Assembly: GCA_037443035.1 (NCBI GenBank)
Contig: JBBIPC010000002.1
Span: 192,001-256,000, forward strand
Source of the DNA: Chthonomonadales bacterium
GTDB lineage: Bacteria; Armatimonadota; Chthonomonadetes; Chthonomonadales; CAJBBX01
DNA: 64,000 nucleotides
Direction of reading: 5' to 3'
The notes under the pieces are model-generated. The model was not told the origin of the DNA and did not search any database. It saw nothing but the letters and a program-made list of their open reading frames with translations. The stretch's first letter is position 1, and each line of letters opens with the position of its first letter. Position numbers and translations under genes: made by a program. Below are positions 30,853 through 55,655 of this stretch, piece by piece.

Positions 30853-31629
30853 TTACTGGCGAGTAGCATCCCACTTGTTCAGGTCGAGCATCGCCGGATC
30901 GCTGTCGTACAGCCAGCCAGGGTTCGTTGCTTCCGGCTTCAGAGCCTTTGCATGCCCGTCGCAGAACGTGAAGTTGGCCATACCGGAGTGGACCGTCGGC
31001 ACGCAACCCGTTGGTCCATTCGGGTAATCAGCCGGAGCACGCTTACCTTCGGGAATAGAGCCGCAGCCCCAGTACCAGTTCCACACGGAGTTGCTGTAGT
31101 ACATGGAGCGAGGCCCCCACCACATGACGTTGTCAATGTCATGCTTCTCGGCAAGCATGATCGTGTCCGCTGGCCGGCCGACCTTCGCCAGCGAGGCGAC
31201 ATTATCGGAGACCCAGCTCTGGACCATACCCATGACGCCGATCATGCGGTTCGCGTTGTTGATCCACTTGATGAGGCCGTTGGAGGCCCAGGAAATGCGG
31301 GGACCGGCCCAGTCCACATCGGCCTGGCGACCGCCGGAATCGCTGGGACAGCGGAGAATGTTGATGTTCTTGATGTAGGGCTGGGTCGTTGTGGGCCAGT
31401 TCAGCGCCCACCAGTTGTTGTCGCACCCCATGGGGTACATCTCGTCGTTGTCCTGGGCGTACATCAGCACTGCCAGGCCAAGCTGCTTGGCATTGCTGAG
31501 ACAGGACGTAGCGCGCGCCTTCTCGCGGGCCTGCGCGAACACCGGGAACAGGATCGCCGCCAGAATCGCGATGATCGCGATCACGACCAGCAGTTCGATC
31601 AGCGTGAACCCCGATTTCTTGTGGAGCAT
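30853..31629 (-). CDS. Prepilin-type N-terminal cleavage/methylation + DUF1559 H-X9-DG protein (copy 1)
   Basis: [46 protein letters not shown] and [24 protein letters not shown]. Confidence 0.93.
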
Positions 31630-31705
31630 TCTTTGACCTCTCCTTGTAGAATTCGCCGCGAGACAGTTGCCTATCCGCCGCTGCGGCACTACGGCGATGG
31701 CATTC

Positions 31706-31966
31706 CTATTGAGGGCCGAATGGTGCCCCTGGTCCCGGCTGGCCCTTGGGCCGGGGCGGAGGTGGCGGGACGTTCCCGCCTTGGCGCATGCGTTCCATGG
31801 CCTGACGCGCCTCTGCAGGCATCTCTGCTGGAGGTCCTTGCTTCAGTTGCTGTTCCTCCTCCTTGGTGAAGCCGCTCCTCTGGCAACCTGCCAGGCCGGT
31901 CATAGCTACTGCTAGGACTGCCGCCACCGTCACTCGCAGCAGCCAGCCAGACAGCCGTATTCTCAC
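31706..31966 (-). CDS. Small Pro-rich putative lipoprotein
   Basis: SD AAGGAGG plus GTG start, a hydrophobic signal ending in the lipobox LAGC, and a Pro/Gly-rich tail. Confidence 0.7.
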
Positions 31967-32017
31967 GTATGTTCCTCCTTGCCCTCGGACGCCACCATTT
32001 TCTGCATCCATAGTTCG

Positions 32018-33046
32018 TCAGACATATGCAGGTGGTCCGGTTGTTTCCCGCGGTACGAAATGCACCGGAAGGACCATATGGCAGTCCGCACCGTTCCGCC
32101 CCTCCAGCAGTCGTTTCATGAGTACGGCCGCCTGGAAACCAAGCTCCTCTGCCGGCTGACGTATCGTTGTCAGTCGGGCCGTTGCCGCGTCAGGCGCGTC
32201 GTCGAAACCCACGACGGAGACATCACCTGGCACACTGACCCCACGATTCGCCAGTATTTCCAGTGTTCGGAGAGCCAGCCCATCGTTACCAGCTAGTATC
32301 GCCGTCGCAGGATGTTCTCGCTGAATCAGGGCGAGGACAGCGTGCTCGAGATCGGGACCGTGCTCTGTCACTGAAGTCGCGGCCAGCCGGCGGTCCGGTA
32401 CGATGCCATGTGCCTCCAGGGCATTACAGTAGGCCTCATATCGCTCGTGAAAGTCATCCGAATAGAGTGGTGAGACAAACGCGATCCGCCGATGCCCCAG
32501 ACGTACAAGGTGGTCCACTGCTGCAGCAATGCCTGAGGCGTTGTCAATACGCACAGAAGCAAGCCTTCCCGGCACATAGCGCTGATAGAGCAGGACCCCC
32601 ATAAGGCCCGATGCGGCCAAGGCATCTACTCCTGCACGGTTGAGGCCGCCCGGCGCTAGGATCACGCCGTCCACGCGCCCGTCCATGAAATAAGCCGCTT
32701 CGACCTCGCCTTCGTGAGGATGCCGCGCATAGAGGAGCGCATCCAGAGAATGCTCCGAGAGGCCCCGTGAGATTCCTCGAAGCATGTCCAGGGAGACGTC
32801 CCTGCTTCCGCCCAGGTAGACCCGCCACGTGAAGACACCGATCGTATTGGTGCGGCCACTCTGAAGCGCCCTGATGAGGGCATTGGGGGCGAACTGCAGC
32901 TCCGAGGCGGCCCAGAGAACGCGCCGCCGCGTAGTCTCTGAGAAGCGACCCTTGCCGTTCAGGACATTGGAGACAGTGCCAATCGACACACCGGCGAGCC
33001 GGGCTACCTCCGAGATGGTTGCACGTTTGGGAGAGTGTAGCGTCAT
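32018..33046 (-). CDS. LacI-family transcriptional regulator (copy 1)
   Basis: HTH ATISEVARLAGVSIGTVSNVLN, plus LGHRRIAF and DVSVVGFDD. Confidence 0.96.
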   Translation of the reverse strand: MTLHSPKRATISEVARLAGVSIGTVSNVLNGKGRFSETTRRRVLWAASELQFAPNALIRALQSGRTNTIGVFTWRVYLGGSRDVSLDMLRGISRGLSEHSLDALLYARHPHEGEVEAAYFMDGRVDGVILAPGGLNRAGVDALAASGLMGVLLYQRYVPGRLASVRIDNASGIAAAVDHLVRLGHRRIAFVSPLYSDDFHERYEAYCNALEAHGIVPDRRLAATSVTEHGPDLEHAVLALIQREHPATAILAGNDGLALRTLEILANRGVSVPGDVSVVGFDDAPDAATARLTTIRQPAEELGFQAAVLMKRLLEGRNGADCHMVLPVHFVPRETTGPPAYV

Positions 33047-33053
33047 TCTGCGA

Positions 33054-33129
33054 TGAACTTACTTCACTGAGCCATTGTTACCTACATGAGGCACCCATGT
33101 CAAGAGGTGTGATGAAGTAACTTCATCAC
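33054..33129 (-). promoter_or_regulatory. LacI-1 promoter flanked by two operator palindromes
   Basis: Minus strand TTGACA (33098-33103) and -10 AACAAT (33074-33079). Perfect inverted repeat GTGATGAAG-taa-CTTCATCAC at 33109-33129 and the related TGAACTTACTTCA at 33054-33066. Confidence 0.7.
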
Positions 33130-33171
33130 GAGAGGATAGACCTCACTCCTTCTTTTCCCCTTACGTGCTGC

Positions 33172-33429
33172 TCACTTCTGTCCCGAGGTCTGACCGCTAG
33201 GTTGGACGAGACCCGCTCCCGAGCCCATGCGGGCGCGTATCTGCGCTATGGCAGCCGCTTTCGCCTGGGGAGGCATCCGCGGATTGTTCTCGATTTGGCT
33301 GATCATCTGCTCGACTGTCGGTCCCTGTCTAGGTCGTGTCTCGGGATTCCACACTGTTTGACGCAACAGCAGTAGCGCAGCGATGACGATGACCACCACT
33401 GCAGCTACGGCCACCCATTTCTGGTTCAC
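33172..33429 (-). CDS. Small single-pass membrane protein
   Basis: SD AGGAGG plus GTG start, an N-terminal TM helix and the segment IENNPRMPPQAKAAAIAQI. Confidence 0.75.
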   Translation of the reverse strand: MNQKWVAVAAVVVIVIAALLLLRQTVWNPETRPRQGPTVEQMISQIENNPRMPPQAKAAAIAQIRARMGSGAGLVQPSGQTSGQK

Positions 33430-33551
33430 GACACACCTCCTGTCGTCCGACGGACAGCCGCCCTCCTACCTGGGGCATGCGGCTTTTCGGGGAGCCGCCC
33501 CGTGATGCGTGAGGCGACTCCCCACAATGCGCTAGCAGATGCCGCGATATC

Positions 33552-34349
33552 TCAGTACGGATACCAGCCCTCGCCGTGCCAGATCGCGGCCTGACCCGCC
33601 TCGACGTAGATGTTGCGGTACCACAGGATGGAACCCTTGCTCATGGACTTCGCATGCCCGTCGAAGAAGGCCACGTTGGCCGTCCTGGTGTGGCGATAGC
33701 GCGGATGCATGCCGCAGCCAGCCCAGACCGCCGTGCCTCCCTCGGCACCGTCGCAGTCGAAGGTCGCCTCGATGTCATTGCCGTCACGGACGGGAGGATT
33801 GCCAATCCACGACACCCAGTCCCACTCCCATGTGGCAAACCGACCCCAACCCCACGAGCCTTCTGTCATGCCGTTCTCCATCATGACGATCTTCTCGGCG
33901 GGTTGGTCAATGACCGCTTCGGAGACGGTGGGTTTGTTGGCGTTATTCACGCCGTCCACCCATTCGTCCGTGAACACATCCATGTGGCATCCGTAGTTGC
34001 CGGACTGAACCCGAGGCCGCGATGGGCATTGGAAGATGCCCGTGGTGCCCCATCCGGTGCCGTCCGCGTAGTGGTCGCCGTTCTTGATGTACGGCCATAT
34101 GACGGCATACCAGGAGTACTGGATCGGACCAGGTCCCCACCACTGGAGCATCGGATAGTACCCATCGTTGTCCTGCACGTACATTGCGATGCCGAGCGCG
34201 ATCTGCTTGTGGTTGGACAAGCAGGTAACGCCGCGGGCCTTCTCGCGTGCCTGTGCAAACACCGGGAACAGGATGGCAGCGAGGATCGCGATGATCGCGA
34301 TGACGACGAGCAGCTCGATCAGCGTGAATGCCGATCCCTTTCCTTTCAT
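33552..34349 (-). CDS. Prepilin/DUF1559 H-X9-DG protein (copy 2)
   Basis: [46 protein letters not shown] and [13 protein letters not shown]. Confidence 0.93.
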
Positions 34350-34388
34350 GTGTGCCTCCCTTTCTCGCTCTCGAGCGAAAGGTTGTGA

Positions 34389-35465
34389 TTAGGGCCTGAG
34401 CACTGCCTTATCCCCTGCGGGGGCCCGGTCGCAGGGGCCTGCACAGGATTCCCGAACGTCCAGGTGCATCGGGAATCGGATGATGGGCTCTGGTATGGCC
34501 TGTCCTCGGATCCGGGCAAGAAGCAGATCCACTGCAGCCCGGCCGATCTCGGGAAGCGGCTGTCGCACGGAGGTGAGTGGCGGAGTGCATCGCTCGCTGA
34601 TCTCCGTGGAGTTGAAACTCACAACCGAAACGTCGTCTGGAACGCGTATACCTGTGTGGGGCAACATTTCGGCGAACATGCGTGCCCTCATCTCGTCGCA
34701 GCAGATGATCCCAGTTGGACGAGGTCGAAGTTCCTTGAACCACCGAATCGCGTCCGCAACCCACTCGGCACTGGGTAATGCTCGCTCGTCCCACGTTCGG
34801 ATATAGGAGGCCGGAAGCTTGGCCCCTGCCTCGGCCATGGCAACACGAATGCCACGCAATCTCTCGGCACCCCACGACAACTCATCGCCGGGGTAGAGCA
34901 CTCCGATAGCCCGATGGCCTAGGTCGGTTAGATGCCGCGCCGCCAACCTCCCACCTGCGTAGTTGTCGCAGTCTACCGACAGGGTCGCGGGATGCTCCGT
35001 GTGGAACGAGACGCAGACCAAGGGGAACCCGGCATCGAGAAGCGCTGGTGTAAGCTGGTCATTCACAAAACGGCTGATCTGCAGCACACCGTCCACGGAC
35101 CCCCCAGTGATGTCAGCGAAGAGGGTCTGCCAGCCCGGGTAATGGGCCGAGAGAAGGAGGACGTTCCGATCATGCTCCGTGGCGCGCTGAATGATGCCCT
35201 CGAGGATCTCGTTGAAGTAGGTGTCCCGGGTGCTGAAGCTCTCCGGCTGATTGAGGACGATGCCTATTCGGCGAGTCTTTCCAGTGGCAAGGGCTCTCGC
35301 AGAAAGATGAGGCCGGTACTGAAGTCGCGCTGCCGCCTCGAGCACGCGCTGCCGCGTTTCCATGGGGATGGAATCGCAACGATTGTTCAGCACGAAGGAC
35401 GCTGTTGTCGGCGAAACGCCGGCCGCTTCAGCAACGTCACGCAGCCGGACACGCCCGGTTGCCAC
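34389..35465 (-). CDS. LacI-family transcriptional regulator (copy 2)
   Basis: HTH VRLRDVAEAAGVSPTTASFVLN, plus LGHRAIG and PPLTSVRQP. Confidence 0.96.
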   Translation of the reverse strand: MATGRVRLRDVAEAAGVSPTTASFVLNNRCDSIPMETRQRVLEAAARLQYRPHLSARALATGKTRRIGIVLNQPESFSTRDTYFNEILEGIIQRATEHDRNVLLLSAHYPGWQTLFADITGGSVDGVLQISRFVNDQLTPALLDAGFPLVCVSFHTEHPATLSVDCDNYAGGRLAARHLTDLGHRAIGVLYPGDELSWGAERLRGIRVAMAEAGAKLPASYIRTWDERALPSAEWVADAIRWFKELRPRPTGIICCDEMRARMFAEMLPHTGIRVPDDVSVVSFNSTEISERCTPPLTSVRQPLPEIGRAAVDLLLARIRGQAIPEPIIRFPMHLDVRESCAGPCDRAPAGDKAVLRP

Positions 35466-35504
35466 TTTGCCTCTCCATCGCCGAGGCCCCCTTGCCTCGT
35501 ACTG

Positions 35505-35577
35505 GTAATGCGCTTCAGTAATCCGACTTAGTAATACGCTTTACGAGATTATACAGTAGCTTGGCAGGGGTTGTCAA
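35505..35577 (-). promoter_or_regulatory. LacI-2 consensus promoter with three tandem 13-bp operator-like repeats
   Basis: Minus strand TTGACA-18nt-TATAAT (35548-35577). Tandem GTAATGCGCTTCA / GTAATCCGACTTA / GTAATACGCTTTA at 35505-35543. Confidence 0.75.
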
Positions 35578-35758: not shown

Positions 35759-38440
35759 ATGTCTTTTCTCGGACTGTTCGCAGTGGCCGTAGCTGTGCGC
35801 GTGTTTGGCACCGACTTCGACGGCACGTTGATCCATCACGTCGACATCCGACTAGGCGCTCAGGCCTCCGACGTGGAGCGCAACGCGGCAACCCTTCTCC
35901 TAGAGCGTCTCACGGAGACCGGGCAAGTAGCAGCGACTATCGCAGGAGACACAAGAACGAGCGCCCCGGCCACTGCGGCGGAACGTCGCGGACCGACCTT
36001 GCGCGTCCTCCTTGGCGTCCCCGGCCACCACGGCGCCATCGCGGCCGAGATCCAACAGCGTCGCATCTCTCCGCTTACGGAACTCGATCCGGGTCCGGAG
36101 GGGTTCTTGCTGAAGCGGCTGGCCGGACCTGCCGAACCAACAGTCCTGGCAGCCGGAGTCGATGATAGAGGCGTGGTCTATGCCGTTGGCGAACTCCTGC
36201 GCCGCTTGCCGATTCGCCAGGGCGGTCTAGAGGTGCCTGCCACACTCGACGTTCGTACTGCACCAGCTTTCGAGCTCCGCGGAACGCAGTTTGGGCAGAG
36301 TCATGTGGCGCTCACCAGGGCCCGCGTAAGGCCGTGGACACAGAAGGAAATCCAGCGGAAGATCGCCGATTACGCGCTCGCGGGAGCCAACACCCTCCAG
36401 GTGCCAGCGCACGTCACCGATATGGATCCCACGTACCGCTACATCAAGGGGCTCGGCCTGAAAACCCTTGTGCACTATTCCGCCAATGCTGGTCAGGGTC
36501 CGCCTGGATGGCAAGCCAGGGAATCCATCGGCAGGACTGGCTACCTCTGTCCGTCCGTACCGGAAGCCCGAGCGGAACTCCTTAGGAACTGCGAGGCCAT
36601 CTTCTCCCGATCACCTGACTTCGATTATGTCAGCTTCTCGGGAGGCGACGGCGGCGGATGCGAATGCGACCGGTGCAAGCCCTACGGCGCGGTGTTCATC
36701 CGGCTCGTCGAGGACTACGCAACGATCATCCATCGGTACCATCCGAACACGCAGGTCATGTTCACCAACCAGAAGTTCGACAACGAGGACGATCTGGCGA
36801 TCTTCGCCTACTTGCGCGATCACCCCAACACGGGCGTACGCGCGTTCTGCGTCGGGCCCGGCTCGGATGCCATGTCGTGGCAGCCGGGGCATCGGCAACA
36901 CCACCGCATGGACCTGTTCCGCTATCCGCGCTTCGGGCCTTTCAGCCGCTACATGCAGGAGATTGTCCATCAGCTTCCACCGCATGTAGATCTGGCGTTC
37001 TACAACGAGGTCACACACTGGCGGTACTCTCAGTACGGCTACGTGCAGGCTTATCCCCGTCCCGACAAGGACGGCAGCCACCCGCCCCACTGGAACCACT
37101 TCATCTACGAGCGCATGCCCGATCCATACCTCACTCAGGTCTACGATCGGCTTACGTTCTTCGCTTGGCCACGATATTACCGGTGGGTCTTCGGCGAGGT
37201 CGTGCGGTACGGCCTAGGTGACTGTACCCATTCTAGCGGCACCCATGACCATTTCAACCAGTGGATGTGGCAGCGGCTGCTCTGGTCGCCCCATCGGCCC
37301 GTCGAGGACGTGGTGGACGAGTACTGCCGCACGTGGTTCGGCCCCGAGGCCGCGCCGCTCATGGCGCAAGCCGTTTTCCTCATGGAGGAGTACCTCCAAT
37401 GGGACCCACAGAAACCCATCACCCGGAAGACGAGCATTGACCAGTACTACGACCTCGTTATGCGGGCCGGCAAGCTGATGCCTCCTCACCTGCGCGACCG
37501 GAGCTGGCTGTGGAGGGAGTTCGCCCAGAAGGCCGCCATAGACAAGCGCACCAAACTCGCCGTCGGACAGCAGATGGCCCTTCAGAGGAGCATCGAGCGG
37601 GACATCGCGGCGGCTCTCTCAAAGTCCGACAGGTCAGACAAGTCCGACAGGTCAGACCTGTCCGACTCGGTCTCCCGCTGCCTATCGCGCCTCGCCTCGA
37701 TGAAGGAAACCCCGGCCATGCGCCGCCTCCGCGAAGAAGCCACGCGTCTGGGAGAAGAGAGCAACGTCTTGTACGGAGTACGAAGCGAGGGAATCTTCAG
37801 CCTAGATCATGACTTCATCGGCCTGGGATGGCTCCGGCGCCAGTTGGAGCGTGCGCTGGCAGCGTCTGGCGAAGAACGCCGCGAGCTCTTGGCCATGATC
37901 GCCGATTACGAGAACCCCGGCCCCGGAGGGTTCTACGACAGTCTCGGTAGTTACGAGTCGGCTCCGCACCTTGTTCATGGCTATCCTTACGATCATGGCC
38001 AACCCTATGTCGGAGAGATGCTCGACGAACGGAACCGCCTGAGCCAGCGCACCATGTGCTACACGCAGGACGAGGCCCAGGGCTTGACCCTGCGCTACGA
38101 AGGATTGGACCCCGATGCCACCTATCGCATTCGGTTCACCCTCGTGCGACCGTGGTACCAACCAAGGTACGCATTTCGGATGAACCAGAAGTCCCAGAGC
38201 ATCTACGCAGACGACATTCCTCTAGCCATCGGTCTGGAACTGCCCGAGAAGATGAGCGACTTCTTCACCTTCGACATTCCCGGAGAGGTAACCAAAGACG
38301 GCGTCTTGACCATTCGGTTCGAGAAGCAACCGGATGTAGCCCAGGGGGATCGTGTCAGCATAGAGCAGTGGCGCAACTGCGGAGGCTGGGGCACTCTCTG
38401 CAGCGAAGTTTGGCTCATGCGCAAGGGCAGCCAACGCTAG
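35759..38440 (+). CDS. Large secreted hypothetical protein, probable glycoside-hydrolase-like multidomain
   Basis: Signal peptide, then a GH67N/GH20b-like N-domain (GPEGFLL..AGVDDRGVVYAVGELLR..PAFELRG). A DGGGCECDRC motif lies in a barrel-like core, followed by a C-terminal beta-sandwich-like region. Confidence 0.6.
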   Translation: MSFLGLFAVAVAVRVFGTDFDGTLIHHVDIRLGAQASDVERNAATLLLERLTETGQVAATIAGDTRTSAPATAAERRGPTLRVLLGVPGHHGAIAAEIQQRRISPLTELDPGPEGFLLKRLAGPAEPTVLAAGVDDRGVVYAVGELLRRLPIRQGGLEVPATLDVRTAPAFELRGTQFGQSHVALTRARVRPWTQKEIQRKIADYALAGANTLQVPAHVTDMDPTYRYIKGLGLKTLVHYSANAGQGPPGWQARESIGRTGYLCPSVPEARAELLRNCEAIFSRSPDFDYVSFSGGDGGGCECDRCKPYGAVFIRLVEDYATIIHRYHPNTQVMFTNQKFDNEDDLAIFAYLRDHPNTGVRAFCVGPGSDAMSWQPGHRQHHRMDLFRYPRFGPFSRYMQEIVHQLPPHVDLAFYNEVTHWRYSQYGYVQAYPRPDKDGSHPPHWNHFIYERMPDPYLTQVYDRLTFFAWPRYYRWVFGEVVRYGLGDCTHSSGTHDHFNQWMWQRLLWSPHRPVEDVVDEYCRTWFGPEAAPLMAQAVFLMEEYLQWDPQKPITRKTSIDQYYDLVMRAGKLMPPHLRDRSWLWREFAQKAAIDKRTKLAVGQQMALQRSIERDIAAALSKSDRSDKSDRSDLSDSVSRCLSRLASMKETPAMRRLREEATRLGEESNVLYGVRSEGIFSLDHDFIGLGWLRRQLERALAASGEERRELLAMIADYENPGPGGFYDSLGSYESAPHLVHGYPYDHGQPYVGEMLDERNRLSQRTMCYTQDEAQGLTLRYEGLDPDATYRIRFTLVRPWYQPRYAFRMNQKSQSIYADDIPLAIGLELPEKMSDFFTFDIPGEVTKDGVLTIRFEKQPDVAQGDRVSIEQWRNCGGWGTLCSEVWLMRKGSQR
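37622..37666 (+). repeat. In-frame 9-bp tandem repeat (5 units) encoding KSDRSDKSDRSDLSD
   Basis: aagtccgac aggtcagac aagtccgac aggtcagac ctgtccgac. Confidence 0.9.
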
Positions 38441-40935: not shown

Positions 40936-42264
40936 ATGCTTCGTGCCGCGGCAACGCCCTTGGCCATCCTCGTCCTCGCCTTGACGGTCTGGTACAGCGA
41001 GGTCGTCGTCCGACCTCCTGTACGTCCAGGACCGGTGGAAGTCATCTACTGGGAAAAGTGGACCAGCTTCGAAGGCGACGCCATGCGCGCAGTGGTGGAT
41101 GCTTTCAACCGCAAACAGAACCGCATCTTCGTCAAGCTCCTGACCATCAGCGGCATCGAGAACAAGACACTCATGGCGGTTGCGGGTGGCAACCCACCCG
41201 ATGTAGCCGGACTCTACGGCCCCAACGTGGCTCAGTACGCTGACGACCAGGCCATCATGCCACTGGACGATTTCTGCGCCGCACACGGCATCAACGCTTC
41301 CCAGTACATTCCGTGTTACTGGGATATCGGCGTATACAGAGGACGGGTGTACTCCCTGCCGACCACACCTGCGTCTACCGCACTCCACTATAACAGGCGC
41401 ATGCTGCGCGAGGCCGGTCTCGATCCCAACCGCCCGCCACGCACCATCGAGGAGCTCGACCAGTATGCTGAGAAGATCACGCGCAGAGACAGCCGCGGAC
41501 GGATCGTTCGAGCCGGCTTCATGCCTGCCGAACCGGGGTGGTGGAACTGGGGCTGGGGATGCATCTTCGGCGGGAAGCTCTGGGATGGGAAGACGCGAAT
41601 CACCGCCAACGCTCCCGAGAACGTTCGCGCCTTCGAGTGGATACGGTCGTACAGCGTCAAGTATGGTGCCACCGACCTGCAGACCTTCCGCAGCGGATTC
41701 GGCAACTTCTCGTCACCTCAGAATGCATTTCTCGCGGAACAAGTGGCCATGGAGCTGCAGGGCGTGTGGATGCACAATTTCATCAGCATGTACGCTCCTG
41801 GTCTCGACTGGGCGGCTGCACCGTTCCCCTATCCTGCGGACCGTCCCGACCTGGCGGAAAGCACGTTCGTGGACGAAGACGTCCTTGTCATCCCCAGAGG
41901 TGCAAAGCACCCGCGAGAGGCTTTCGAGTTCATCGCCTTCGTGCAATCCCAGGAGGGTATGGAGCTGCTGTGCATGGGGCAGCGCAAGCATACGCCCCTT
42001 GTCAAGGTCAGCGATCGGTTCTGGAAGACCCACCCCAACCCGTACGTGAAGCTGTTTGCACGCCTGGCATACAGCCCGAACGCCATCGCGCCTCCTAAGC
42101 TGCCCTTGTGGCCCGAGTACGGCGCCGAGTTGAACAACGCCTTCGACGAAGTCGTACTCCTCAAGAAGACACCACAACAGGCGCTGGATGCGGTACAGGC
42201 GAGGATGCAGCCGAAGCTCGACCAATACGTTCGCCTGTCCCGCCTGCGGGGAGAGGAACCATGA
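40936..42264 (+). CDS. Carbohydrate ABC transporter substrate-binding protein
   Basis: Motifs AVAGGNPPDV, YSLP, YNRRMLREAGLD..PPRTIEEL and AFEFIAF. Confidence 0.92.
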   Translation: MLRAAATPLAILVLALTVWYSEVVVRPPVRPGPVEVIYWEKWTSFEGDAMRAVVDAFNRKQNRIFVKLLTISGIENKTLMAVAGGNPPDVAGLYGPNVAQYADDQAIMPLDDFCAAHGINASQYIPCYWDIGVYRGRVYSLPTTPASTALHYNRRMLREAGLDPNRPPRTIEELDQYAEKITRRDSRGRIVRAGFMPAEPGWWNWGWGCIFGGKLWDGKTRITANAPENVRAFEWIRSYSVKYGATDLQTFRSGFGNFSSPQNAFLAEQVAMELQGVWMHNFISMYAPGLDWAAAPFPYPADRPDLAESTFVDEDVLVIPRGAKHPREAFEFIAFVQSQEGMELLCMGQRKHTPLVKVSDRFWKTHPNPYVKLFARLAYSPNAIAPPKLPLWPEYGAELNNAFDEVVLLKKTPQQALDAVQARMQPKLDQYVRLSRLRGEEP

Positions 42265-43316
42265 GACGCGAGACGAGAACAGCGCTGCTCTTCGCCTCAC
42301 CGTGGTTCGTCGGTTTCAGCGTGTTTCTCGCCTACCCGCTCGCAGCGTCCCTGTACTACAGCTTCTGCGACTATTCTGTTCTCCGGTCGCCCGTGTGGGT
42401 TGGTTGGCTGAACTTCCGCAACCTGATCGCTGACGAGGTCTTCTGGGCCAGTCTGAAGAACACGGCGATCTACGCCGCCATGGCGCTACCGCTCGGCATG
42501 CTGACAGCCCTCTCCCTCGCCCTCTTGCTGAACACGAAGGTGAAGGGGATGACCGTCTATCGGACGATCTTCTTCTTGCCATCTCTCGTGCCCACGATTC
42601 CGCTGGCCGTGCTCTGGCTGTGGGTCTTCAACGGTGAACACGGCATTCTGAACTACGCTCTGGAGTATCTGCCCGCGGCCGTCATCCTCGGGCTACCGCT
42701 GTTGATTGGCATCGTCGCCGCCTGCGTCGGCTATGCATCAGGCCGACGTCAGTTAGGACACGGGCTTCTGGTCATGACCCTGGTCATCCTGGCAGCGACG
42801 GTCTGGGCTGGGGGAGTCGGGATGGGTCTACTTCAGAAGCTCCACGCGATAGTGCGGCTGCCGACGCCGAACTGGCTCAGCGATACTGCCTGGTCGAAGC
42901 CCGCCCTGGCACTCATGGCGTTGTGGGGATCGGGCAATGCCATGGTCATCTACCTCGCCGGTCTGCAGGACGTCCCGACGGAGATGTACGAAGCTGCAGA
43001 GCTCGACGGCGCCGGATGGTGGGCGCGGACCCGCAACGTCACCATACCCTTCGTCTCGCCTGTCATCCTCTTCAACGGTATTATGGGCATCATCGGCACG
43101 CTGCAGGTTTTCGCGGAGCCCTACGTCATGTTCCCTGGAGGCTCACCGGCTCGTTCCACATACTTCTACACGATGTACCTGTTCGACAACGCCTTCATCT
43201 ACCACAAGATGGGCTATGCCTGCGCCATGGGCTGGATCATGTTCCTCATCATCCTCGGACTCACGCTGCTTGCTCTCCGCCTCTCGGAGAGGCATGTGCA
43301 CTACCAGGGAGGCTAG
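42261..43316 (+). CDS. Carbohydrate ABC transporter permease
   Basis: Motifs FASPWFVGF and YRTIFFLPS, and the EAA loop YEAAELDGAG. ATGA overlap with the substrate-binding protein. Confidence 0.93.
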   Translation: MRRETRTALLFASPWFVGFSVFLAYPLAASLYYSFCDYSVLRSPVWVGWLNFRNLIADEVFWASLKNTAIYAAMALPLGMLTALSLALLLNTKVKGMTVYRTIFFLPSLVPTIPLAVLWLWVFNGEHGILNYALEYLPAAVILGLPLLIGIVAACVGYASGRRQLGHGLLVMTLVILAATVWAGGVGMGLLQKLHAIVRLPTPNWLSDTAWSKPALALMALWGSGNAMVIYLAGLQDVPTEMYEAAELDGAGWWARTRNVTIPFVSPVILFNGIMGIIGTLQVFAEPYVMFPGGSPARSTYFYTMYLFDNAFIYHKMGYACAMGWIMFLIILGLTLLALRLSERHVHYQGG

Positions 43317-43436
43317 GGTGATGAGCGAACATCATGGGACGGTCCGGATCGCTGCCTCGCGCCGGCAGACGCAACCGGACTGTAGCACCCGGCAAGTTCC
43401 GGGGCGCCTCACGCGACGGATAGGGCCTAGCGAAAG

Positions 43437-44324
43437 ATGGCCGTGAACGCACCTGCGTCCAAGCAGAAACCTCGCCTGAGGGATCAGCGACATCAGTGGC
43501 TGGTCCACCTGGTGCTGATGCTCCTGTCCGTGGCGTTTCTCTTTCCCCTTCTCTGGCTGATTTCGACCGCCCTGAAGCCCATCGAAGAGACCATGCGACA
43601 ACCGCCGACTCTGTTCCCTTCCAGTATTCAGTGGCACAACTTCCGAGATGCTTTCGTCTACGGGGCCGACAAGCTGGGGTACATCCCGTTTCTTGTCTAC
43701 GGACGGAATACGCTCCTTCTCTGCATCCTTGGCGTGTCCGGGGTGGTTGTTTCCAACTCGGTAGTTGCGTACGCCTTCGCACGTCTCCGATGGCCAGGGA
43801 GAGACATCCTGTTCGCGGCCACGTTGGCAACGATGATGATCCCGTTCCCGGTCCTCATGGTCCCCATCTACGCGTTCTGGCGCTCGCTCGGCTGGATAGG
43901 GACGTTCAAACCGCTCTGGGTGCCTGCATGGTTCGGGAGCGCGTTCAACATCTTTCTCTTGCGCCAGTTCTTCCGCACCATCCCGTTGGAGCTCTCTGAA
44001 GCCGCCCGGATAGACGGCTGCTCAGAATGGGGCATCTTCCGGCAGGTCGTGCTTCCACTGGCCAAGCCGGCTCTGGCAGTTGTCGCGCTCTTTCACTTCA
44101 TGTATACATGGCGCGACTTCCTCGGACCGCTCATCTACCTCATGGACCAGAGGACCTTCACGCTGTCCCTCGGGCTACAGTTCTACCAGAGCCAGCACGG
44201 TGGCACGCAATGGCATCTTCTCATGGCCGCCTCCACGATCGTCATCGCTCCGGTCATTGTCCTCTTCTTCTTCACCCAGAAGCAGTTCATCCAGGGCATC
44301 GCGGTCACAGGTATCAAGGGCTGA
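43437..44324 (+). CDS. Carbohydrate ABC transporter permease
   Basis: Motifs AYAFARL, FLLRQFF..IPLELSEAARIDG and QKQFIQGI. Confidence 0.95.
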   Translation: MAVNAPASKQKPRLRDQRHQWLVHLVLMLLSVAFLFPLLWLISTALKPIEETMRQPPTLFPSSIQWHNFRDAFVYGADKLGYIPFLVYGRNTLLLCILGVSGVVVSNSVVAYAFARLRWPGRDILFAATLATMMIPFPVLMVPIYAFWRSLGWIGTFKPLWVPAWFGSAFNIFLLRQFFRTIPLELSEAARIDGCSEWGIFRQVVLPLAKPALAVVALFHFMYTWRDFLGPLIYLMDQRTFTLSLGLQFYQSQHGGTQWHLLMAASTIVIAPVIVLFFFTQKQFIQGIAVTGIKG

Positions 44325-44386
44325 CCCATCGGTCGCCATGTATGGGGGGTGCTGAACACGCAGCGCCCGTGAGCGAGGTAACACGC

Positions 44387-45904
44387 ATGACGCATCCCAT
44401 GACTTTGGCATTCGTGCTGTTAGCCGCCAGCGGGAGGCTTCTCGCTGCTGACGTCTCGGTACGGACATACGGAGCCAGGGGCGATGGTGTGCACGATGAT
44501 ACGGCTGCGTTCGGCCAAGCCCTGAGTGCCGCAGCGAAGTCGGGAGGGGTCGTACGCGTGCCGTCCGTGGGACCTGGCCGCGGGTATGTCATCTCCGGGA
44601 CGCTGACCATACCTGCAGGTGTTTCTCTCGTTGGCAGTCCTGCGGGGTTTGCCAACAATGCTTGGGCCGCCTTCTCCATGCCAGAGAGCATCCTCGTGGG
44701 CGCGAAGATACTGGCCCGTCCCAAACCGGACGATTACACCGGCGCGAAGAAGCGTCCGCTCTTCGAACTGCCCGGTGGTTCTACGGTGAGGGGGTTGTAC
44801 ATTCTGTACGACCAGCAACCCTGGCCCTCGGACGAGGAGTTCGCCGACGCGGCCTCACCGTTTCACTACCCGGATTACGCCAGCGCGCGTCGCCTCTTTC
44901 TGCGTCAGCACGTGAAACCCTATGGCCCGACCTTCTACGTCACCGGTCCCAACGTGGTGATCGAGGACATCGTCTGTGATAGGTACTACGACTTCTTCGT
45001 GCAAGCTCGCGGTGGTCGCACCTACGTTGACCGGGTGAGCCTCTACGGCTACAGGTGCGGATTCGCTTACAGGGAATGCCTCGACGTCAATCGTCTGTCG
45101 CGCGTCCACCTCGTACCCAACGTAGGTCCGGCATGTCCTGGCAAGGCTCTCCCAGGCAAGACGTACACGTGGATCTATGGGATCATCGCATCAAGTGCCG
45201 ACAACGTTGGGGTGCACGTAGCGCGTTCCGATGGATATGTCTTCCGTGATCTGATGTTCTTTGGCGTGCACACCGCACTGCGATTGGGTGCTTCTCGCGA
45301 CTATCCTCTGCACGACACTGTCGAGGGCGTGGAGGCATATGAGCAGGAGGCGTCCCAGGTCCGCCATGGCTTCGGATCTTCTTACGTTGCACAGGGTCCG
45401 TGGGGGTCCGTGAGCGAGCTCACCGCTGATCTATGCGCCGTAGGCGTCCACTTGGTCTGGCCGACGCCGCTGACCAACCGCCTGACGAACGTCATCGTCC
45501 ACACTGGCATCACCGACGACCGGTCCTTCCTGGTTCCGGGCAAGGACGCATCGCCAATTGGACGCCAGGCCGCAGTCCTGGTGGAATCGAGCCATTCAGT
45601 CACGAACAACATTGGCATCGTACCGGCACTGCTCATCTGCAACCTATCCGTAGGCTCCTTCCACGATCCAGGGCGCTTCGGGCCGGCCGCTGCTGACGCG
45701 TCGCGTTGTCGAGGCCGTGCGTTTCTCGTAGACGGCGACGTTGCCATCGAGATAGCCAACGCCCAGATTAACAGCCCCTATACTGAGGACTCGACCATCG
45801 CCTTCGGACCGGCTGCCAGCAAGGCCACGCTCAGAATCCGCGGACTGTTGCGCACGGGCAACGCCTGCCCCGATCTGGTCCTGAAGGGACCACCCGGGCA
45901 ATAA
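44387..45904 (+). CDS. Secreted right-handed beta-helix (Pectate_lyase_3/GH28-related) protein
   Basis: Signal peptide, then VSVRTYGARGDGVHDDTAAF..A...GGVVRVP. Confidence 0.75.
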   Translation: MTHPMTLAFVLLAASGRLLAADVSVRTYGARGDGVHDDTAAFGQALSAAAKSGGVVRVPSVGPGRGYVISGTLTIPAGVSLVGSPAGFANNAWAAFSMPESILVGAKILARPKPDDYTGAKKRPLFELPGGSTVRGLYILYDQQPWPSDEEFADAASPFHYPDYASARRLFLRQHVKPYGPTFYVTGPNVVIEDIVCDRYYDFFVQARGGRTYVDRVSLYGYRCGFAYRECLDVNRLSRVHLVPNVGPACPGKALPGKTYTWIYGIIASSADNVGVHVARSDGYVFRDLMFFGVHTALRLGASRDYPLHDTVEGVEAYEQEASQVRHGFGSSYVAQGPWGSVSELTADLCAVGVHLVWPTPLTNRLTNVIVHTGITDDRSFLVPGKDASPIGRQAAVLVESSHSVTNNIGIVPALLICNLSVGSFHDPGRFGPAAADASRCRGRAFLVDGDVAIEIANAQINSPYTEDSTIAFGPAASKATLRIRGLLRTGNACPDLVLKGPPGQ

Positions 45905-45926
45905 GATTGCCCGACCCAAGTTGCTA

Positions 45927-50300: not shown

Positions 50301-51927
50301 GAATCAGCGACATTACGAGCTCTTCCCTAATGGGATCGATGGGCGGGTTCGTCACCTGCGCGAAGAGCTGCTTGAAGTAGCTATACAGTAACTGGGGGCG
50401 GCTGGACAGGACTGCGAGAGGCGTATCGTTGCCCATGGAACCCAGAGGTTGCTCGCCATTGATGGCCATGGGTGCCATGAGGATCTTCAGATCCTCGAGC
50501 GTGTAACCGAAGGCCCGCTGTCTGTCCAGGATCGTGTCATGGTCGGCGACATGCACATTTGGTGGGTCTGGAAGATCACGGAGATCCACCTTGTTCTCAG
50601 CGAGCCACTTGCCGTAGGGCTTCCTGCGGACAATGCGGTTCTTCAGCTCTTCATCGGCAATGATCCGCCCTTCGTCGGTGTCCACCATGAAGATGCGACC
50701 GGGTTGGAGCCTCCACTTCTCGCGGATACGCTCGGGCTCGATGTCAAGGACGCCCGTCTCCGACGCCATGACGACCAGGTCGTCATGCGTCACCAGGTAC
50801 CTAGCAGGTCGGAGGCCGTTGCGATCCAAGCAAGCCCCGATTCGCACACCGTCCGTGAAGGCTATGGCTGCCGGTCCGTCCCATGGCTCCATGATGCACG
50901 CATGGTACTCGTAGAACGCCCGGCGCTCGGGATCCATATGCTCGTTGCTGCCCCATGCCTCCGGCACGAGCATCATGAGCGCATGGGCAATGTGCCGGCC
51001 ACCCATGACGAGTAGCTCCAGCGCATTGTCCAATGTGGCGGAGTCGCTTCCCACCTCGTTCACCAAGGGAATGAGCTTCCGCACATCGTCGCCGAAAACG
51101 GAGGAGCTCAACTTCGCCTGCCGCGCACGCATCCAGTTCCGATTGCCACGCAGGGTGTTGATCTCGCCATTGTGCGCGATCATACGGTAAGGATGCGCCA
51201 GAGGCCAGGTCGGGAACGTGTTGGTACTGAAGCGCTGATGGACCAGGGCAAGGGCTGTGCGCATTTCGGCGTCGGCCAGATCCAGGTAGAAACCGGTGAT
51301 CTGTCGTGCCAGAAGCAGGCCCTTATAGACGATCGTCCTCGAGGAAAGGCTACAGACGTAGAAGTCCGAGAACAGATGAAGCCCCTTGCTCTCTAGCGTG
51401 CGGAAGATGGTCTTGCGGATGACATAGAGCTTCCGCTCGAATGCAGTCCTGTCGGTGATATCGCGAGAAGACCCCACAAAGAACTGTCGAATGACGGGTT
51501 CTGTCTCGCGCGCTTTGGCGCCGATAACACTATCGTCTACCGGCACATCGCGCCAGCCGAGAAAGACCTGTCCTTCGCTGTCTACGACATGCTCGATTAC
51601 CGCTTCGCAGATCTGCCTTTCGGTGACATCACGAGGGAGGAAGACCATGCCGACTCCGTACCGGCCCGGATCCGGCAGGCGCCCGTCCAATTCCCGCTGG
51701 TACAGGCCATGGGGTATCTGCACGAGGATGCCCGCGCCATCGCCGGTCTCAGGGTCGCAGCCGCACGCGCCGCGGTGTTCGAGGTTGACAAGTATCTTGA
51801 GCGCCTGCTCTACGATTTCATGGGACGGTCGCCCCTTCATGTCCACGACGAAACCAACACCGCATGCGTCGTGCTCGAATGCAGGATCGTAGAGCCCGTC
51901 CTTGGTCGGATATGGTGATCGTATCAT
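47359..51927 (-). CDS. gltB: Glutamate synthase large subunit
   Basis: Motifs [48 protein letters not shown] and NFAAGMSGG. Confidence 0.98.
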
Positions 51928-52162
51928 CAGCTATCCAGTCGTTACTTCCAGAATGGGAAAGACGCCCTGGCCCGGAGCAGCGTCATGCCGACGTCATGTC
52001 GATACGCTGCGCACTTCCGGCCACGGGCGTCCTCGGAACCGTGCCTGCTATGGAGGTTACGAGTATACCCTGTAGTACCGATTCTACGGACAGGTTTGCG
52101 CCATGGAGGCGATCGCTCCCCTGCTCGTACAGGACGCGATGTCTGTGGCTAGGCGTCGGCGA

Positions 52163-53455
52163 TCACCGACGTGCCTTGGCAACAAGACCTGCTCGGCGAA
52201 ATGCTCTCGACGTAGCCGGATGGCTGCCGGTTAGGCGCCAAATCAGGCCGGTGCGGTAGTTCTCGATAGCGAGCAGCGCCATACCGAGATCGATGCCGAT
52301 GACGTCCTTGTCGAACCAGTTGCGGTCGAGGTTGTAGGCATTCGCGAAGCCATACCGCCCCCACATTCGCTTCCCGAGCGTCTTCCGCAGGTAGTGCGCG
52401 CTATCCAGTGCTCCGCGTGGGTCGTAGAGGATGGAAGCCAGGACGCCCGTCGGCGATAGCGTGCCGTCTTCAGGAGTTGGTACCCCGTATGCCATGTAGC
52501 CATCGGGACCATCGGACGCGTTGAGACCCCATCCGTACGGGCCGTAGCCCTTCCTGCCGGTAGGATTGTCTTTGCAGAAGAGCCGGTGGATGCGGACTGC
52601 GTCTGCCGCCGCGGAATGATAGTCAATGCCGAGACGGTCACGTCTGTCGCGCAGGTCATAGTAAGCGTGGCTCATCTGATGCCAGAAGATCGGCCCCGCC
52701 GCCAAAGTCCTGATGCCTCGGTATTCGTAGGTTCCCCGCTTCCATGCGTACCATGATTCGCTCGGCAACGGGTTTCGCCTGGCGCCTAAGCCGAGCAGGT
52801 ACAGGAAGATGTGCTCGCAGAAGGTATCCCAGTTGTTCGACAGGAAACCGGTCTCGGGCTTCCAGCCGTGGGAGAGGACGAGCTTGGCAGGCTGCGTGCC
52901 ACCGTTGGTCAGCATCCATTGCCAGTCCAGCCGATCATAGAGCTGGTTGGCAAGCGTCTCTACCTTGGTGCCGCGGAAGTACTGGCCACAGGTGAGGGCT
53001 CCAATGACGAGGAGGCCCGTGTCAATGGAGGAGACTTCGCAGCCCCATCGTCTCTGTCCCGTAGCCCAATCCACGAAGTGATAGAGCCAACCATGCTTGT
53101 GGGGCATCTTCAGGACGTATCGGAGCGTTCGCTCGGCCCGGGCGATGGCGTCCTGGCGCTCGATCCAGCCTCGTTCCACGCCAATGGGAAGGGCTGCCAG
53201 CCCATAGCCGGTAGCCGCGATGGAGGCCACATCGTAGCTGTCCCTGCCCGAGTTGGATGCGCGGTCTCGAACAAGACCGGTGCGCGGATGGGCACACTCG
53301 ACGAAGAACAGCACAGCCCTACGCTGGACTTCGTCCAGGAGCTGGCGATCAGACGCAACAGAGGACGTAGGGGGGCCGCCGTACGACGGCCCCAGCTGCA
53401 GTGCCGCCGCCAACGTGGCGAGGAGGTTGACCACATAGCGGCGGCTCTGTCTCAT
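52163..53455 (-). CDS. GH144 / 'glucoamylase' (DUF2329) family, probable endo-beta-1,2-glucanase
   Basis: Motifs [44 protein letters not shown] and [16 protein letters not shown]. Signal-like N-terminus, and ATGA overlap with DUF1559 copy 3. Confidence 0.85.
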
Positions 53456-54243
53456 CGTGTGGTCGCTCGAAGCGTGGTGCAGAAGGTATCGAGCCAGGAG
53501 AGGTCCATCCCACCAAAGACCATGTTGTTCGGGTTGTACATCCACATGTTCGTGCCGTCGGGATTGCTGGGCGTGCAAGTGGCCTCGTAGCTGGTCCACT
53601 TCGAGTGCCCATCCATGAACGTGATATTGGCCGCACGGTCGGTGCCGCGGTGCCGTGCCCCCCAGTTCGCTCCTGCCGAACCCCAGTCAGGATCGTAGGC
53701 CATCCAGGGGCCGTAATCTGCCCAGATGTCCTTGTGCTCACCGAAGAGGATGGAGTTCGCCGGATAGTCGAACCCCGCCTCGGCGTACTTGAAGCCTGAC
53801 CACCAGTCACCTGAACCGACCGCGGCGCTGGACTTGAAGAACGCATTGTAGTAGAAGTAGGAGCGGACCGTCTTCGGCACCGTGGGATCGTACCAGGACT
53901 CGGCTGACTCATCGAGGGTGTTTCCGGCAGGATTGCTCGGGCACTTGAAGAGCTGCAAGTTCTTGATGTACGGCTGGAGGAGGTGCTTCCAGTTGCCCAG
54001 ACAGCCGTTGGGACCGAAGTTCCGGCGGATCATCAAGGTCTCGTCGTAGTCCTGACTGTACATTCTCGCCGCAGTGCCGAACTGCCGCGTGTTGGAGAGG
54101 CAGGAGATCAGTCGAGCCGACTCGCGTGCTTGCGCGAATACTGGGAAGAGAATTGCTGCCAGGATGGCGATGATGGCAATCACCACCAGCAGCTCGATGA
54201 GAGTGAACCCGCCCCAACGGGGCTGTGCCTTGCCGTAGCGCAT
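53452..54243 (-). CDS. Prepilin/DUF1559 protein (copy 3, H-X12-DG variant)
   Basis: [52 protein letters not shown] and [24 protein letters not shown]. Confidence 0.92.
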
Positions 54244-54350
54244 TGTGTTGCCTTCTCCTTTGATGGTGTGTGCACGATCCACAGACCCTCTCGGATCGGG
54301 GTCGTGGTCTTGCGCAGTTGCTGCACTTTCACGTGCCAAGAGCGAATGTC

Positions 54351-54551
54351 CTAACGTGGCGTAATCGGTGCCGAGACGCCCGGGTTCCGCCCTGGTATCT
54401 CTCCCGGCTTCATCGGTCGCCCCAGCCCTGCCTCCTTCGGCGAACGGAGGCCGCTGGGTACGGCCCACATCTTCCAGACACCAAGACCAATGGCAGCCAG
54501 CAAGAGAGCAACGATCAAGACTGCCAGGCGTGTGTCAATCTCGCGTCTCAT
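54351..54551 (-). CDS. Small single-pass membrane protein, Pro/Gly-rich tail
   Basis: MRREIDTR followed by a TM helix and [15 protein letters not shown]. An alternative start at 54569 overlaps the LacI stop. Confidence 0.7.
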
Positions 54552-54565
54552 GATCTCCTCCCGTT

Positions 54566-55585
54566 TCATGACGGTGCAGGACCAGTCGATTCACGTATAC
54601 AAAGGACTGGAGGAATGACGATCGAGTGGGCCTCCTCGCTGCCGTTCTCGATCATCGCCGCAAGCATCTTCATGCCCTCGGCTGCGATGAGCGGAATGTC
54701 CTGCGCCACGCTTGTCAGAGTGGGGTGCGTATGGTTGCAGAATTCCGTGGAGTCGAAGCCAATAATGGAGAGGTCCTGAGGGACGCGCAGTCCTATATTG
54801 CGCACCTCGGCCATCAGCCGGAGCGCTACATCATCCGACCACGCGAACACAGCCGTGGGTCTTGGTTCGCGAAGGAGTGCTTCGGCAACAGGAGTGAAAT
54901 CTGCCCCCGCATGCCCGGCTTCGAGAATGTGGTCGGTCCGTAGGGCGCAACCTGCATCATGCAGGGCGTTCTGGAAGCCCCGCAGCCTGTCCACTGCCGC
55001 GCTGGAGTGAGGCGATCCCGTCAGATGGAGGATATGCCGATGCCCGAGGCTCGTCAGGTACTCACCGGCGATTCTGCCACCCAGTTCATCGTCGCAGCAG
55101 GCGTAGGGCACCGTGGCATTGCGGCTGCGACTGAAGATGAGCACCGTGGGGATGGAATGCTCCACCAGCAAGTCAATGAGTGGATCGTCCCAGTCTCGGA
55201 GCAGCAGGGCTCCGTCCACACGCCCATCGGCAAGGGCTAGCGCCTCCGCCCGTACATCACTCCGTTCGCGAGTGTGTAGCAGGAGGTCCAGTCCGCACGC
55301 GTGCGCAGCATCCGCTACCCCATGCATCATTTCGGACGTGAAGCCCGACCAGCTCGAGAAGATGGAGGCGTACTGCATGACAAGCGCAACGGTGTGCGTC
55401 TTCTTGCCCGCCAGACCGCGCGCCAGAGCGTTGGGATGGTATCCCAGCTCCTCCACCGCCCTCCAGATCCGCTCCCGCGTACGAGGGCTGATGCGGACGG
55501 CGCCTGACCGATTGTTCAGGACGTACGAGACCGTGGCGATGGAAACGCCAGCTCTCTCCGCCACTTCCTTGATGGTTGCCGCCAT
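54566..55585 (-). CDS. LacI-family transcriptional regulator (copy 3)
   Basis: HTH ATIKEVAERAGVSIATVSYVLN, plus YHPNALARGL and DLSIIGFD. Confidence 0.96.
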   Translation of the reverse strand: MAATIKEVAERAGVSIATVSYVLNNRSGAVRISPRTRERIWRAVEELGYHPNALARGLAGKKTHTVALVMQYASIFSSWSGFTSEMMHGVADAAHACGLDLLLHTRERSDVRAEALALADGRVDGALLLRDWDDPLIDLLVEHSIPTVLIFSRSRNATVPYACCDDELGGRIAGEYLTSLGHRHILHLTGSPHSSAAVDRLRGFQNALHDAGCALRTDHILEAGHAGADFTPVAEALLREPRPTAVFAWSDDVALRLMAEVRNIGLRVPQDLSIIGFDSTEFCNHTHPTLTSVAQDIPLIAAEGMKMLAAMIENGSEEAHSIVIPPVLCIRESTGPAPS

Positions 55586-55594
55586 GCACGCCTG

Positions 55595-55655
55595 CCGAAC
55601 CGATTAAGGTTAAACGCTTCAGCACCATTATACATACCGATTCGCGGCTTGTCAA
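55595..55655 (-). promoter_or_regulatory. LacI-3 consensus promoter with two tandem operator-like sites
   Basis: Minus strand TTGACA-17nt-TATAAT (55627-55655), followed by CTGAAGCGTTTAAC and CTTAATCGGTTCGG, which are LacI-like with a central CG. Confidence 0.75.

Follow-up and report, generated by a model that had tools for sequence, protein, structure and literature searches.

Regulator-led DUF1559 prepilin cassettes in a Chthonomonadales genome: candidate ligand-capture subunits of a type IV filament

What does a bacterium do with prepilins that are each placed under a sugar-sensing repressor of their own? The question is raised by a 64,000-nucleotide (nt) stretch of a Chthonomonadales bacterium (phylum Armatimonadota; assembly GCA_037443035.1, contig JBBIPC010000002.1, positions 192,001 to 256,000), hereafter the window, in which three units on the minus strand combine a LacI-family repressor, a DUF1559 prepilin and a small membrane protein or lipoprotein. 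An earlier interpretation made from the sequence without database searches (the sequence-only reading) took them for a triplicated, sugar-inducible system for pilin-based glycan capture. As described below, the pilin cassettes are dedicated ones under separate control, each subfamily of pilins follows a single signal, and regulator-led pilin cassettes are real and part of a phylum-wide design in Armatimonadota. The role that we favor, with a probability of roughly 0.55, is that DUF1559 prepilins serve as interchangeable, ligand-specific capture subunits on a shared type IV filament and replace TonB-dependent receptors.

Coupling of sugar-sensing regulators to pilin genes

PF07596 has 46 matches in the genome, which is 3.76 Mb in size and rated 100% complete, and a pilin profile of our own recovers 48 pilin-like genes, 44 of which were classed as 'core'. 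Its sugar-sensing regulators were counted as eight genes with a LacI helix-turn-helix (HTH) and two GntR-type genes with the same sugar-binding domain, a count that leaves out five weaker PF13377 matches (21-51 bits) and other families (ROK, AraC). A core pilin starts 24-468 nt downstream on the same strand in 10/10 of these LacI/GntR genes, compared with 9/1231 similar-sized background genes (0.7%), and a gene for a membrane protein or lipoprotein of 50-150 amino acids (aa) lies within 450 nt of 29/44 core pilins, compared with 23/821 background genes. The window holds three of the ten regulator-led cassettes, and two further pilins of the genome are headed by an ArsR-type gene and a DeoR gene.

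The coupling is also seen in relatives, where we sampled 60 of the 205 LacI matches in 30 genomes (the best-scoring, at most three per genome, which came from 26 genomes). A pilin lies within 600 nt downstream of 41 of the 60 LacI genes, upstream of three more and divergently from one. Across the phylum, a pilin follows at least 14 of 27 further LacI loci, six of the 14 from one genus; given the shortness of the loci, this count is a minimum. DUF1559 genes themselves are abundant, with 21-58 or more matches in 30 of 31 genomes and seven in one genome that is 64% complete. The sequence-only reading had proposed a genome-wide count of LacI, pilin and small partner genes as neighbors, and the coupling indeed stands far above background in this genome and in its relatives.

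Each unit of the window also has control sequences of its own. A sigma-70-type site precedes each LacI gene, with the -35 element at 33103 (10/12) in unit 1, 35577 (12/12) in unit 2 and 55655 (12/12) in unit 3. The unit 1 promoter region (33049-33129, minus strand) holds two operator-like palindromes that flank the promoter, one a 10-bp inverted repeat without mismatches (33109-33129) and the other a further copy of it (33049-33066), and the same arrangement of promoter and palindrome recurs upstream of four orthologous LacI genes. In unit 2 (35504-35577, minus strand), tandem operator-like sites shortly beyond the -10 box, at about 35504-35544, are predicted to bind the repressor, and in unit 3 (55594-55655, minus strand) one or more putative LacI-type palindromic operator sites lie just past the -10 box, where a palindrome is conserved at the equal position in 12 related LacI genes. 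When the regions upstream of orthologous LacI genes are aligned, each unit proves to have a conserved site of its own, located at the -10 box or shortly past it, that is kept in four other loci for unit 1, three for unit 2 and 12 for unit 3. The palindrome beside the gene's own promoter that typifies LacI/GalR regulators is therefore present as an orthologue footprint, the operators themselves being predicted, and the proposal that every unit has its own promoter and operator repeats holds. A simple consensus scan of the genome for a wider regulon found, beyond the sites in the window, one intergenic candidate for unit 2 at C18:9297 and one weak intergenic match for unit 1 at C22:47315, with no gene nearby.

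Could the linkage be incidental, with abundant paralogues happening to lie near regulators? The family is very abundant (44-48 copies), but the contrast between 10/10 and a background of 0.7%, the 41/60 in relatives, and the conserved operators and riboswitches effectively refute this explanation, which we regard as hardly credible.

Subfamilies that follow one signal

Unit 3 is the clearest case of a pilin tied to an enzyme. Its prepilin (263 aa, 53452-54243, minus strand; PF07963 and PF07596) belongs to a subfamily linked to glycoside hydrolase family 144 (GH144), and its stop codon is overlapped by the next gene (52163-53455, minus strand; PF10091), whose product has a signal-peptide-like N-terminus. 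Orthologues of the pilin occur in 19 of 200 other genomes, spanning eight genera and four families, and a GH144 gene stands directly behind the pilin in 19/19. In the reciprocal comparison, a pilin was found within 700 nt upstream in 30 of the 65 GH144 loci examined (of 70), and 27 of these 30 pilins have the unit 3 pilin as their best match among the 44 of the genome.

The downstream gene is likely a GH144 beta-1,2-glucanase, judging from its domain and its match to the Protein Data Bank structures XcSGL (8xul), CpSGL (5gzh) and BDI_3064. Its residues E214, F257 and Y320 align with E239, F286 and Y367 of the SGL clan (XcSGL numbering, the chain offset having been read from the E239Q mutant). 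These clan residues are taken from PMC12102758, which also describes a non-active group within the clan (papers are cited here by PubMed Central (PMC) accession and from partial text). PF10091 occurs only once in the genome, in the gene behind unit 3, so no cyclic glucan synthase domain of the PF10091 family was found in this genome; the glucan is therefore probably foreign. Unit 3 is thus likely to be a cassette with a named candidate substrate, beta-1,2-glucan, by virtue of its GH144 linkage.

Other pilins follow vitamins. An Rfam scan covered 11 of the 38 pilin loci fetched. At G000:C2:52612-54305 (L004:4773-6466), outside the window, a thiamine pyrophosphate (TPP) riboswitch, a DUF1559 pilin (53340-54080) and a thiamine pyrophosphokinase gene follow one another in that order. 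Orthologues of this thiamine-type pilin occur in 38 of 120 other genomes, and among 19 such loci that were fetched the TPP riboswitch is present in 19/19 and the pyrophosphokinase gene lies behind the pilin in 9/19. At G000:C4:148076-150866 (L012:5194-7984), a DUF1559 pilin and two BtuF-like genes stand behind a cobalamin riboswitch. The DUF1559 family is therefore not limited to glycans. In the Bacteroidetes TPP-riboswitch operon OMthi-pnuT-tnr3, a TonB-dependent thiamine transporter sits in the slot (PMC5613172) that is taken here by the pilin. By this analogy, the thiamine-type pilin is a candidate thiamine receptor in the OMthi position.

The company of a secreted enzyme suggests another role, in which the pilins are cargo-specific pseudopilin adaptors of the type II secretion system (T2SS), induced together with a secreted enzyme for its export or display, as GH144 would be in unit 3. 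The unit 3 pilin gene both overlaps and travels with a signal-peptide-bearing GH144, and a complete T2SS is encoded on contig C6. A similar idea has been put forward for Verruconatronum alginivorum, for which the authors suggest T2SS export of alginases (PMC13274419). In that organism's alginate cluster (pgaptmp_000046-60), a 251-aa pilin-like protein accounts for 0.513% of the proteome on alginate, more than any other product of the cluster, and its share is 0 on both sucrose and mannose (PMC13274419 Table S3; a single replicate in which mannose was sampled shallowly). Most similar-sized pilin-labelled proteins there went undetected, one DUF1559 protein was seen only on sucrose (0.033%), and one was abundant throughout (PMC13274419). 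The likeness to our cassettes is a pilin-like protein from a 67-member paralogue family, encoded near LacI and glycan lyases, that is made only on the substrate; the differences are the other phylum, the appeal to T2SS export, and a large cluster with an SSS permease instead of the 3-4-gene cassette seen here. Induction of a similar pilin by one polysaccharide speaks for the capture role that we favor. On alginate, however, the Verruconatronum pilin outnumbers the lyases and either annotated GspG, which counts against an export adaptor. Moreover, most cassettes of our genome lack an adjacent secreted glycan enzyme, no exported enzyme is evident beside the pilin at either the thiamine or the cobalamin locus, and 35 of the 65 GH144 genes have no pilin. 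We consider the adaptor role quite unlikely.

The three units in the window and their surroundings

All ten genes of the three units, GH144 included, were found on the minus strand at the coordinates first assigned to them, and Pfam upheld the identities given to the three LacI proteins, the three pilins and the GH144 protein. Unit 1 consists of a LacI-family repressor (32018-33046; PF00356 and PF13377), a small lipoprotein-like partner of 86 aa with a lipobox by pattern (31706-31966) and a prepilin of 258 aa (30853-31629; PF07963 and PF07596). Unit 2 has its repressor at 34389-35465, its prepilin of 265 aa at 33552-34349 (PF07963 and PF07596) and a small single-helix membrane partner of 85 aa at 33172-33429, so that the small gene comes after the pilin and the gene order differs. 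Unit 3 begins with its repressor (54566-55585), followed by a single-helix membrane partner of 66 aa (54351-54551, or possibly from an alternative upstream start at 54569) and by the pilin and GH144 genes. According to Pfam, all three repressors combine an N-terminal LacI HTH with the periplasmic-binding-protein-like sugar sensor expected of the LacI/GalR family.

The three pilins belong to the DUF1559 or SBP_bac_10 prepilins (PF07596), a family with the H-X9-DG motif (TIGR04294 and TIGR02532). Each carries PF07963, and their PF07596 scores are 47.0, 37.4 and 27.4 bits against a cut-off of 23.3. A class III signal peptide as defined in PMC9934059 (Gly/Ala | Phe, Glu5 and a hydrophobic tract) is present in all three, with TIGR02532 above its cut-off. 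TIGR04294 is borderline, in that the unit 2 pilin scores 19.1 bits against a cut-off of 19 and units 1 and 3 are not among the matches listed; the corresponding residues are H214..D224-G225 in the unit 1 pilin and H198..D211-G212, with a longer spacing, in that of unit 3. Against equivalogs of core pilins of the T2SS and of type IV pili (T4P), namely GspG/H/J, PilA and ComGC, the window pilins score far below cut-off, and the genuine GspG cluster of the genome lies apart from them on contig C6.

The idea that one three-gene unit occurs three times stands for its LacI and pilin parts and fails for the small genes, which are not of one family: a lipoprotein in unit 1 and single-helix membrane proteins in units 2 and 3. 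No Pfam or NCBIfam family matched the small partners of the three units, and a Pfam scan of small partners matched 0/17. They are nevertheless kept by their cassettes. A homologue of the unit 1 lipoprotein adjoins the orthologous pilin in four close relatives, the unit 2 gene remains behind the orthologous pilin in relatives G017 and G186, and a Gly/Pro motif past the helix of the unit 3 partner is conserved across 17 aligned sequences. Nor is 'triplicated' an apt description. Identity is 24-28% among those pilin C-domains that were compared and 28-33% among the LacI sensor domains, values that rule out a recent triplication; the nearest relatives of each unit are in other genomes. Unit 3 LacI orthologues that head the same cassette are 40-67% identical, and units 1 and 2 lie on separate contigs in G017 and G186. 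By sequence comparison, the three units are old paralogues.

No fixed enzyme accompanies units 1 and 2 at orthologous loci, where the neighbors vary; for unit 1 they include a tricorn protease in three close relatives and GH127 in two. In the window, the Tricorn-type protease gene (27352-30651) comes directly after unit 1, an arrangement kept in those three relatives only. Diverging from unit 2 and sharing its control region is a gene for a probably secreted DUF4838 protein (35759-38440, plus strand; PF16126), a candidate glycan-active partner that is also divergent from unit 2 pilin orthologues in nine genomes of one genus. Between units 2 and 3, at 40936-45904, a sugar ATP-binding cassette (ABC) transporter run (binding protein and two permeases) is followed by a pectate-lyase-like protein; the run has no ATPase and no adjoining regulator. 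Upstream of unit 3 on the same strand (55879-58549) are an SDR oxidoreductase and a second secreted pectate-lyase-like protein.

Elsewhere in the genome, three-pilin arrays that alternate with small membrane genes and have no regulator occur at L011:5501-8431 and L026:5501-9372, and at G000:C10:74875-76600 (L021:5501-7226) a DUF1559 pilin is followed by an FmdE-family gene. Pup-ligase and proteasome-subunit genes were seen at G000:C20 (L050:5738-8872), and a phage tail-tube (gp19-like) gene at G000:C2:159981-160481 (L056:4588-5088), which may belong to a contractile injection or prophage-like region.

Capture and its alternatives

How might a pilin capture a nutrient? AlphaFold2 models of the unit 1 pilin (pLDDT 94, pTM 0.87) and the unit 3 pilin (pLDDT 90) have a long N-terminal helix (residues 10-60 and 15-65) and a small sheet that the H-X-DG strands complete, with an extensive loop-rich region in between. 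The top VIA matches of these predicted models are type IV pilins (Z 5.1, root mean square deviation 3.2-3.5, 114-121 aligned residues), and Neisseria ComP, a DNA receptor for uptake, is also among the matches (Z 4.1-4.2). No lectin or carbohydrate-binding module fold was found in the models, with no Foldseek match at E <= 0.001, pilin cores only from VIA and unnamed clusters only from the Atlas, the variable region not having been searched alone. The C-domains are enriched in Trp (2.6-fold), Asn (2.5-fold) and Tyr (2.1-fold), and each pilin subfamily has six conserved Trp residues, a composition compatible with ligand binding though no proof of it.

The machinery for such a filament is encoded elsewhere in the genome, as the sequence-only reading supposed. 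PilD, PilB/GspE, PilC/GspF, PilT and secretins are all encoded, with six secretins and eight strong PilB/GspE/PilT-type ATPases in total; besides the T2SS on C6 there is a T4P locus with PilD on C7 and another T4P locus on C10. A candidate assembly machine is in the G000:C7:117388-136147 region (L019:7438-14950), where PilB, PilT, PilC and PilD are found together with a DUF1559-like pilin that has diverged and with pilin-like proteins of very large size (592-1001 aa). Separately, three tandem secretin genes with no neighboring ATPase lie at G000:C34:7218-11942. The presence of lipopolysaccharide export genes indicates an outer membrane, and in this complete genome there are 0 matches to the TonB-dependent receptor barrel PF00593 (SusD was not searched separately); across the order, such barrels number 0-4 per genome, where DUF1559 genes are counted in the dozens.

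If the pilins are capture subunits, each LacI protein would repress its own operon until its sugar arrives, which for unit 3 would likely be sophorose or beta-1,2-gluco-oligosaccharides. PilD would process the pilin, whose large, variable, Trp-rich loop region could then bind the ligand. The pilin would join a pilus or endopilus built by the machine on C6, C7 or C10, and retraction would carry the ligand through a secretin into the periplasm. There it might be cut by an enzyme, either co-encoded (GH144 in unit 3) or distant, and ABC or OPT-like DUF6785 permeases might import the products. The small partner would likely stabilize, chaperone or tether its cognate pilin, the least supported of these steps.

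An alternative is that the pilins are membrane-anchored periplasmic solute-binding proteins, the helix being only an inner-membrane tether, which together with the partner hand the ligand to ABC or OPT-like DUF6785 permeases with no filament involved. The Pfam name SBP_bac_10 points this way, an older paper that reports stress regulation of the family's genes in Rhodopirellula treats it as a solute-binding family (PMC2754498), and Tuwongella members fractionate with membranes (PMC8567305). The genome also encodes 20 DUF6785/DUF6784 membrane proteins, a few of them beside pilin cassettes; one DUF6785 cluster has the OPT family on 11% of its members, and these proteins are a possible lead for OPT-like inner-membrane import. 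Yet the pilins scarcely vary in their class III signal, Glu5 included, which is what filament assembly selects for, and the predicted fold resembles pilins and not solute-binding proteins. The B12 locus already has two BtuF-like proteins, and crossing of the outer membrane would be left unexplained. This makes the solute-binding role rather unlikely.

It is also conceivable that the pilins act on surface filaments as ligand-specific adhesins or sensors, which hold the cell on a food particle or report the ligand and import nothing. Streptococcus sanguinis uses the glycan-binding minor pilin PilC to adhere (PMC9934059), planctomycete fibers bind dextran (PMC5394234), and all of the gene-context results fit this role equally well. 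Adhesion makes little sense, however, for pilins switched by thiamine and B12, and the vitamin-pilin genes occupy the position of TonB-dependent importers in a genome without a TonB receptor match. We judge the adhesin or sensor role unlikely.

Several observations weigh against the favored capture role itself. Twelve of the 19 genomes with the unit 3 pilin are from one genus, and the pilin is missing within 700 nt upstream of 35 of the 65 GH144 genes, including that of the close relative G186. In 62 of the 158 extracted neighbors of such pilin-less loci that were scanned, there was one solute-binding protein and one ABC ATPase; among these, other transporters are rare in the slot, and a clean swap is not apparent. 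The structural matches cover the pilin core only, at a middling Z of about 5, and secreted loop-rich domains, too, are typically enriched in aromatic residues. Starting from random pilins (79 loci, eight without enough room, and a LacI profile built from the genome's own eight LacI proteins), a LacI gene was directly upstream in 3/71: 1/20 in Armatimonadota, 2/14 in Lentisphaerota/Kiritimatiellota, 0/23 in Verrucomicrobiota (one divergent), 0/8 in Planctomycetota and 0/6 unassigned, which makes LacI one switch among several. The similarities of LacI and pilin are correlated over 85 regulator-pilin pairs (rho 0.33), but after dereplication to 47 pairs the Mantel rho is 0.13 (p 0.024), a weak deep conservation. 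Finally, glycan-active genes are not enriched near pilins. In a hand count of glycan-active Pfam matches in two genes of at least 130 aa on each side of the 48 pilins, leaving out window genes and one unfetched gene, 13 of 154 flanking proteins qualified compared with 5 of 107 controls (p = 0.32). The enrichment of carbohydrate-active enzyme (CAZyme) neighbors anticipated by the sequence-only reading was therefore not observed, and enzyme clustering like that of polysaccharide utilization loci (PULs) is unsupported as a general rule. Because Chthonomonas genomes are poorly organized into operons (PMC4959169), the enzyme test is the less telling of the two and the regulator-pilin link the more so.

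How far, then, does the likeness to known uptake systems reach? Bacteroidota PULs are built around a tandem SusC TonB-dependent transporter and SusD. Like them, each locus here pairs a single regulator or riboswitch with a single surface component specific to its substrate, in some cases with one enzyme added; the differences are that there is no TonB receptor match, no beta-barrel and few enzymes per locus. Unit 3 has one enzyme, GH144, and since glycan enzymes are not significantly enriched around pilins, most cassettes are not PUL-like. As a side observation, the most PUL-like cassette of the genome, at G000:C13 (L024:3175-7802), runs from an ArsR-type regulator through a small membrane protein and a pilin to GH43 and a sugar ABC transporter. 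The proposal of substrate-specific, SusCD-analogous modules thus survives in that subfamilies track one signal, unit 3 with GH144 and another with the TPP riboswitch, and not in its restriction to glycans or its PUL-like makeup; the cassette would be comparable in function to a minimal SusCD-type locus without being one. PilC, with its glycans, and ComP share with our pilins a class III signal and a pilin core that bears a specificity region, but they are single dedicated subunits for one pilus, whereas here there are about 45 individually regulated paralogues. The dextran-binding fibers at the crateriform structures of planctomycetes (PMC5394234) are a further likeness, as glycan binding by pili-like fibers in bacteria with the same expanded family, although the fiber subunits are not known to be DUF1559 proteins.

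No description of such a cassette was found in the open-access PMC and bioRxiv literature. The expansion of the DUF1559 family has been published together with the signal-peptide genes that flank its members (PMC8567305), as have 79 PulG-like genes in Fimbriimonas (PMC4072686), and in the available portions neither account gives a function or a link to LacI, riboswitches or GH144. In a fucoidan study (PMC11685898), a search of text passages and the supplement found no mention of the family under the terms used. To these accounts the present analysis adds the 10/10 count with its background, a two-way GH144 test, three distinct footprinted operators and a conserved thiamine cassette.

The route by which large sugars cross the outer membrane in planctomycetes and related glycan degraders is an open question, the uptake players still being called unknown in a 2025 review (PMC12673574), and planctomycete CAZyme clusters are stated to be uncharacterized (PMC11131199). 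It is possible, though we put it somewhat below an even chance, that Armatimonadota, and probably the PVC phyla with the same family, have replaced TonB transport with dozens of interchangeable pilin receptors, each with its own sugar repressor, riboswitch or metal regulator, on one shared retractile filament that draws ligand (glycan, thiamine, B12) through a secretin, with unit 3 as the beta-1,2-glucan module. In these phyla DUF1559 forms a very large family without known function, to which the receptor role would give a testable job. For this the window supplies candidate ligands (beta-1,2-glucan in the case of unit 3, thiamine in that of a sister gene), mapped operators and small proteins with confident models. 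If it is true, bacteria would have, in addition to porins and TonB-dependent transporters, another route of nutrient capture at the outer membrane, and pilin subfamilies would serve to indicate the diet of uncultured bacteria.

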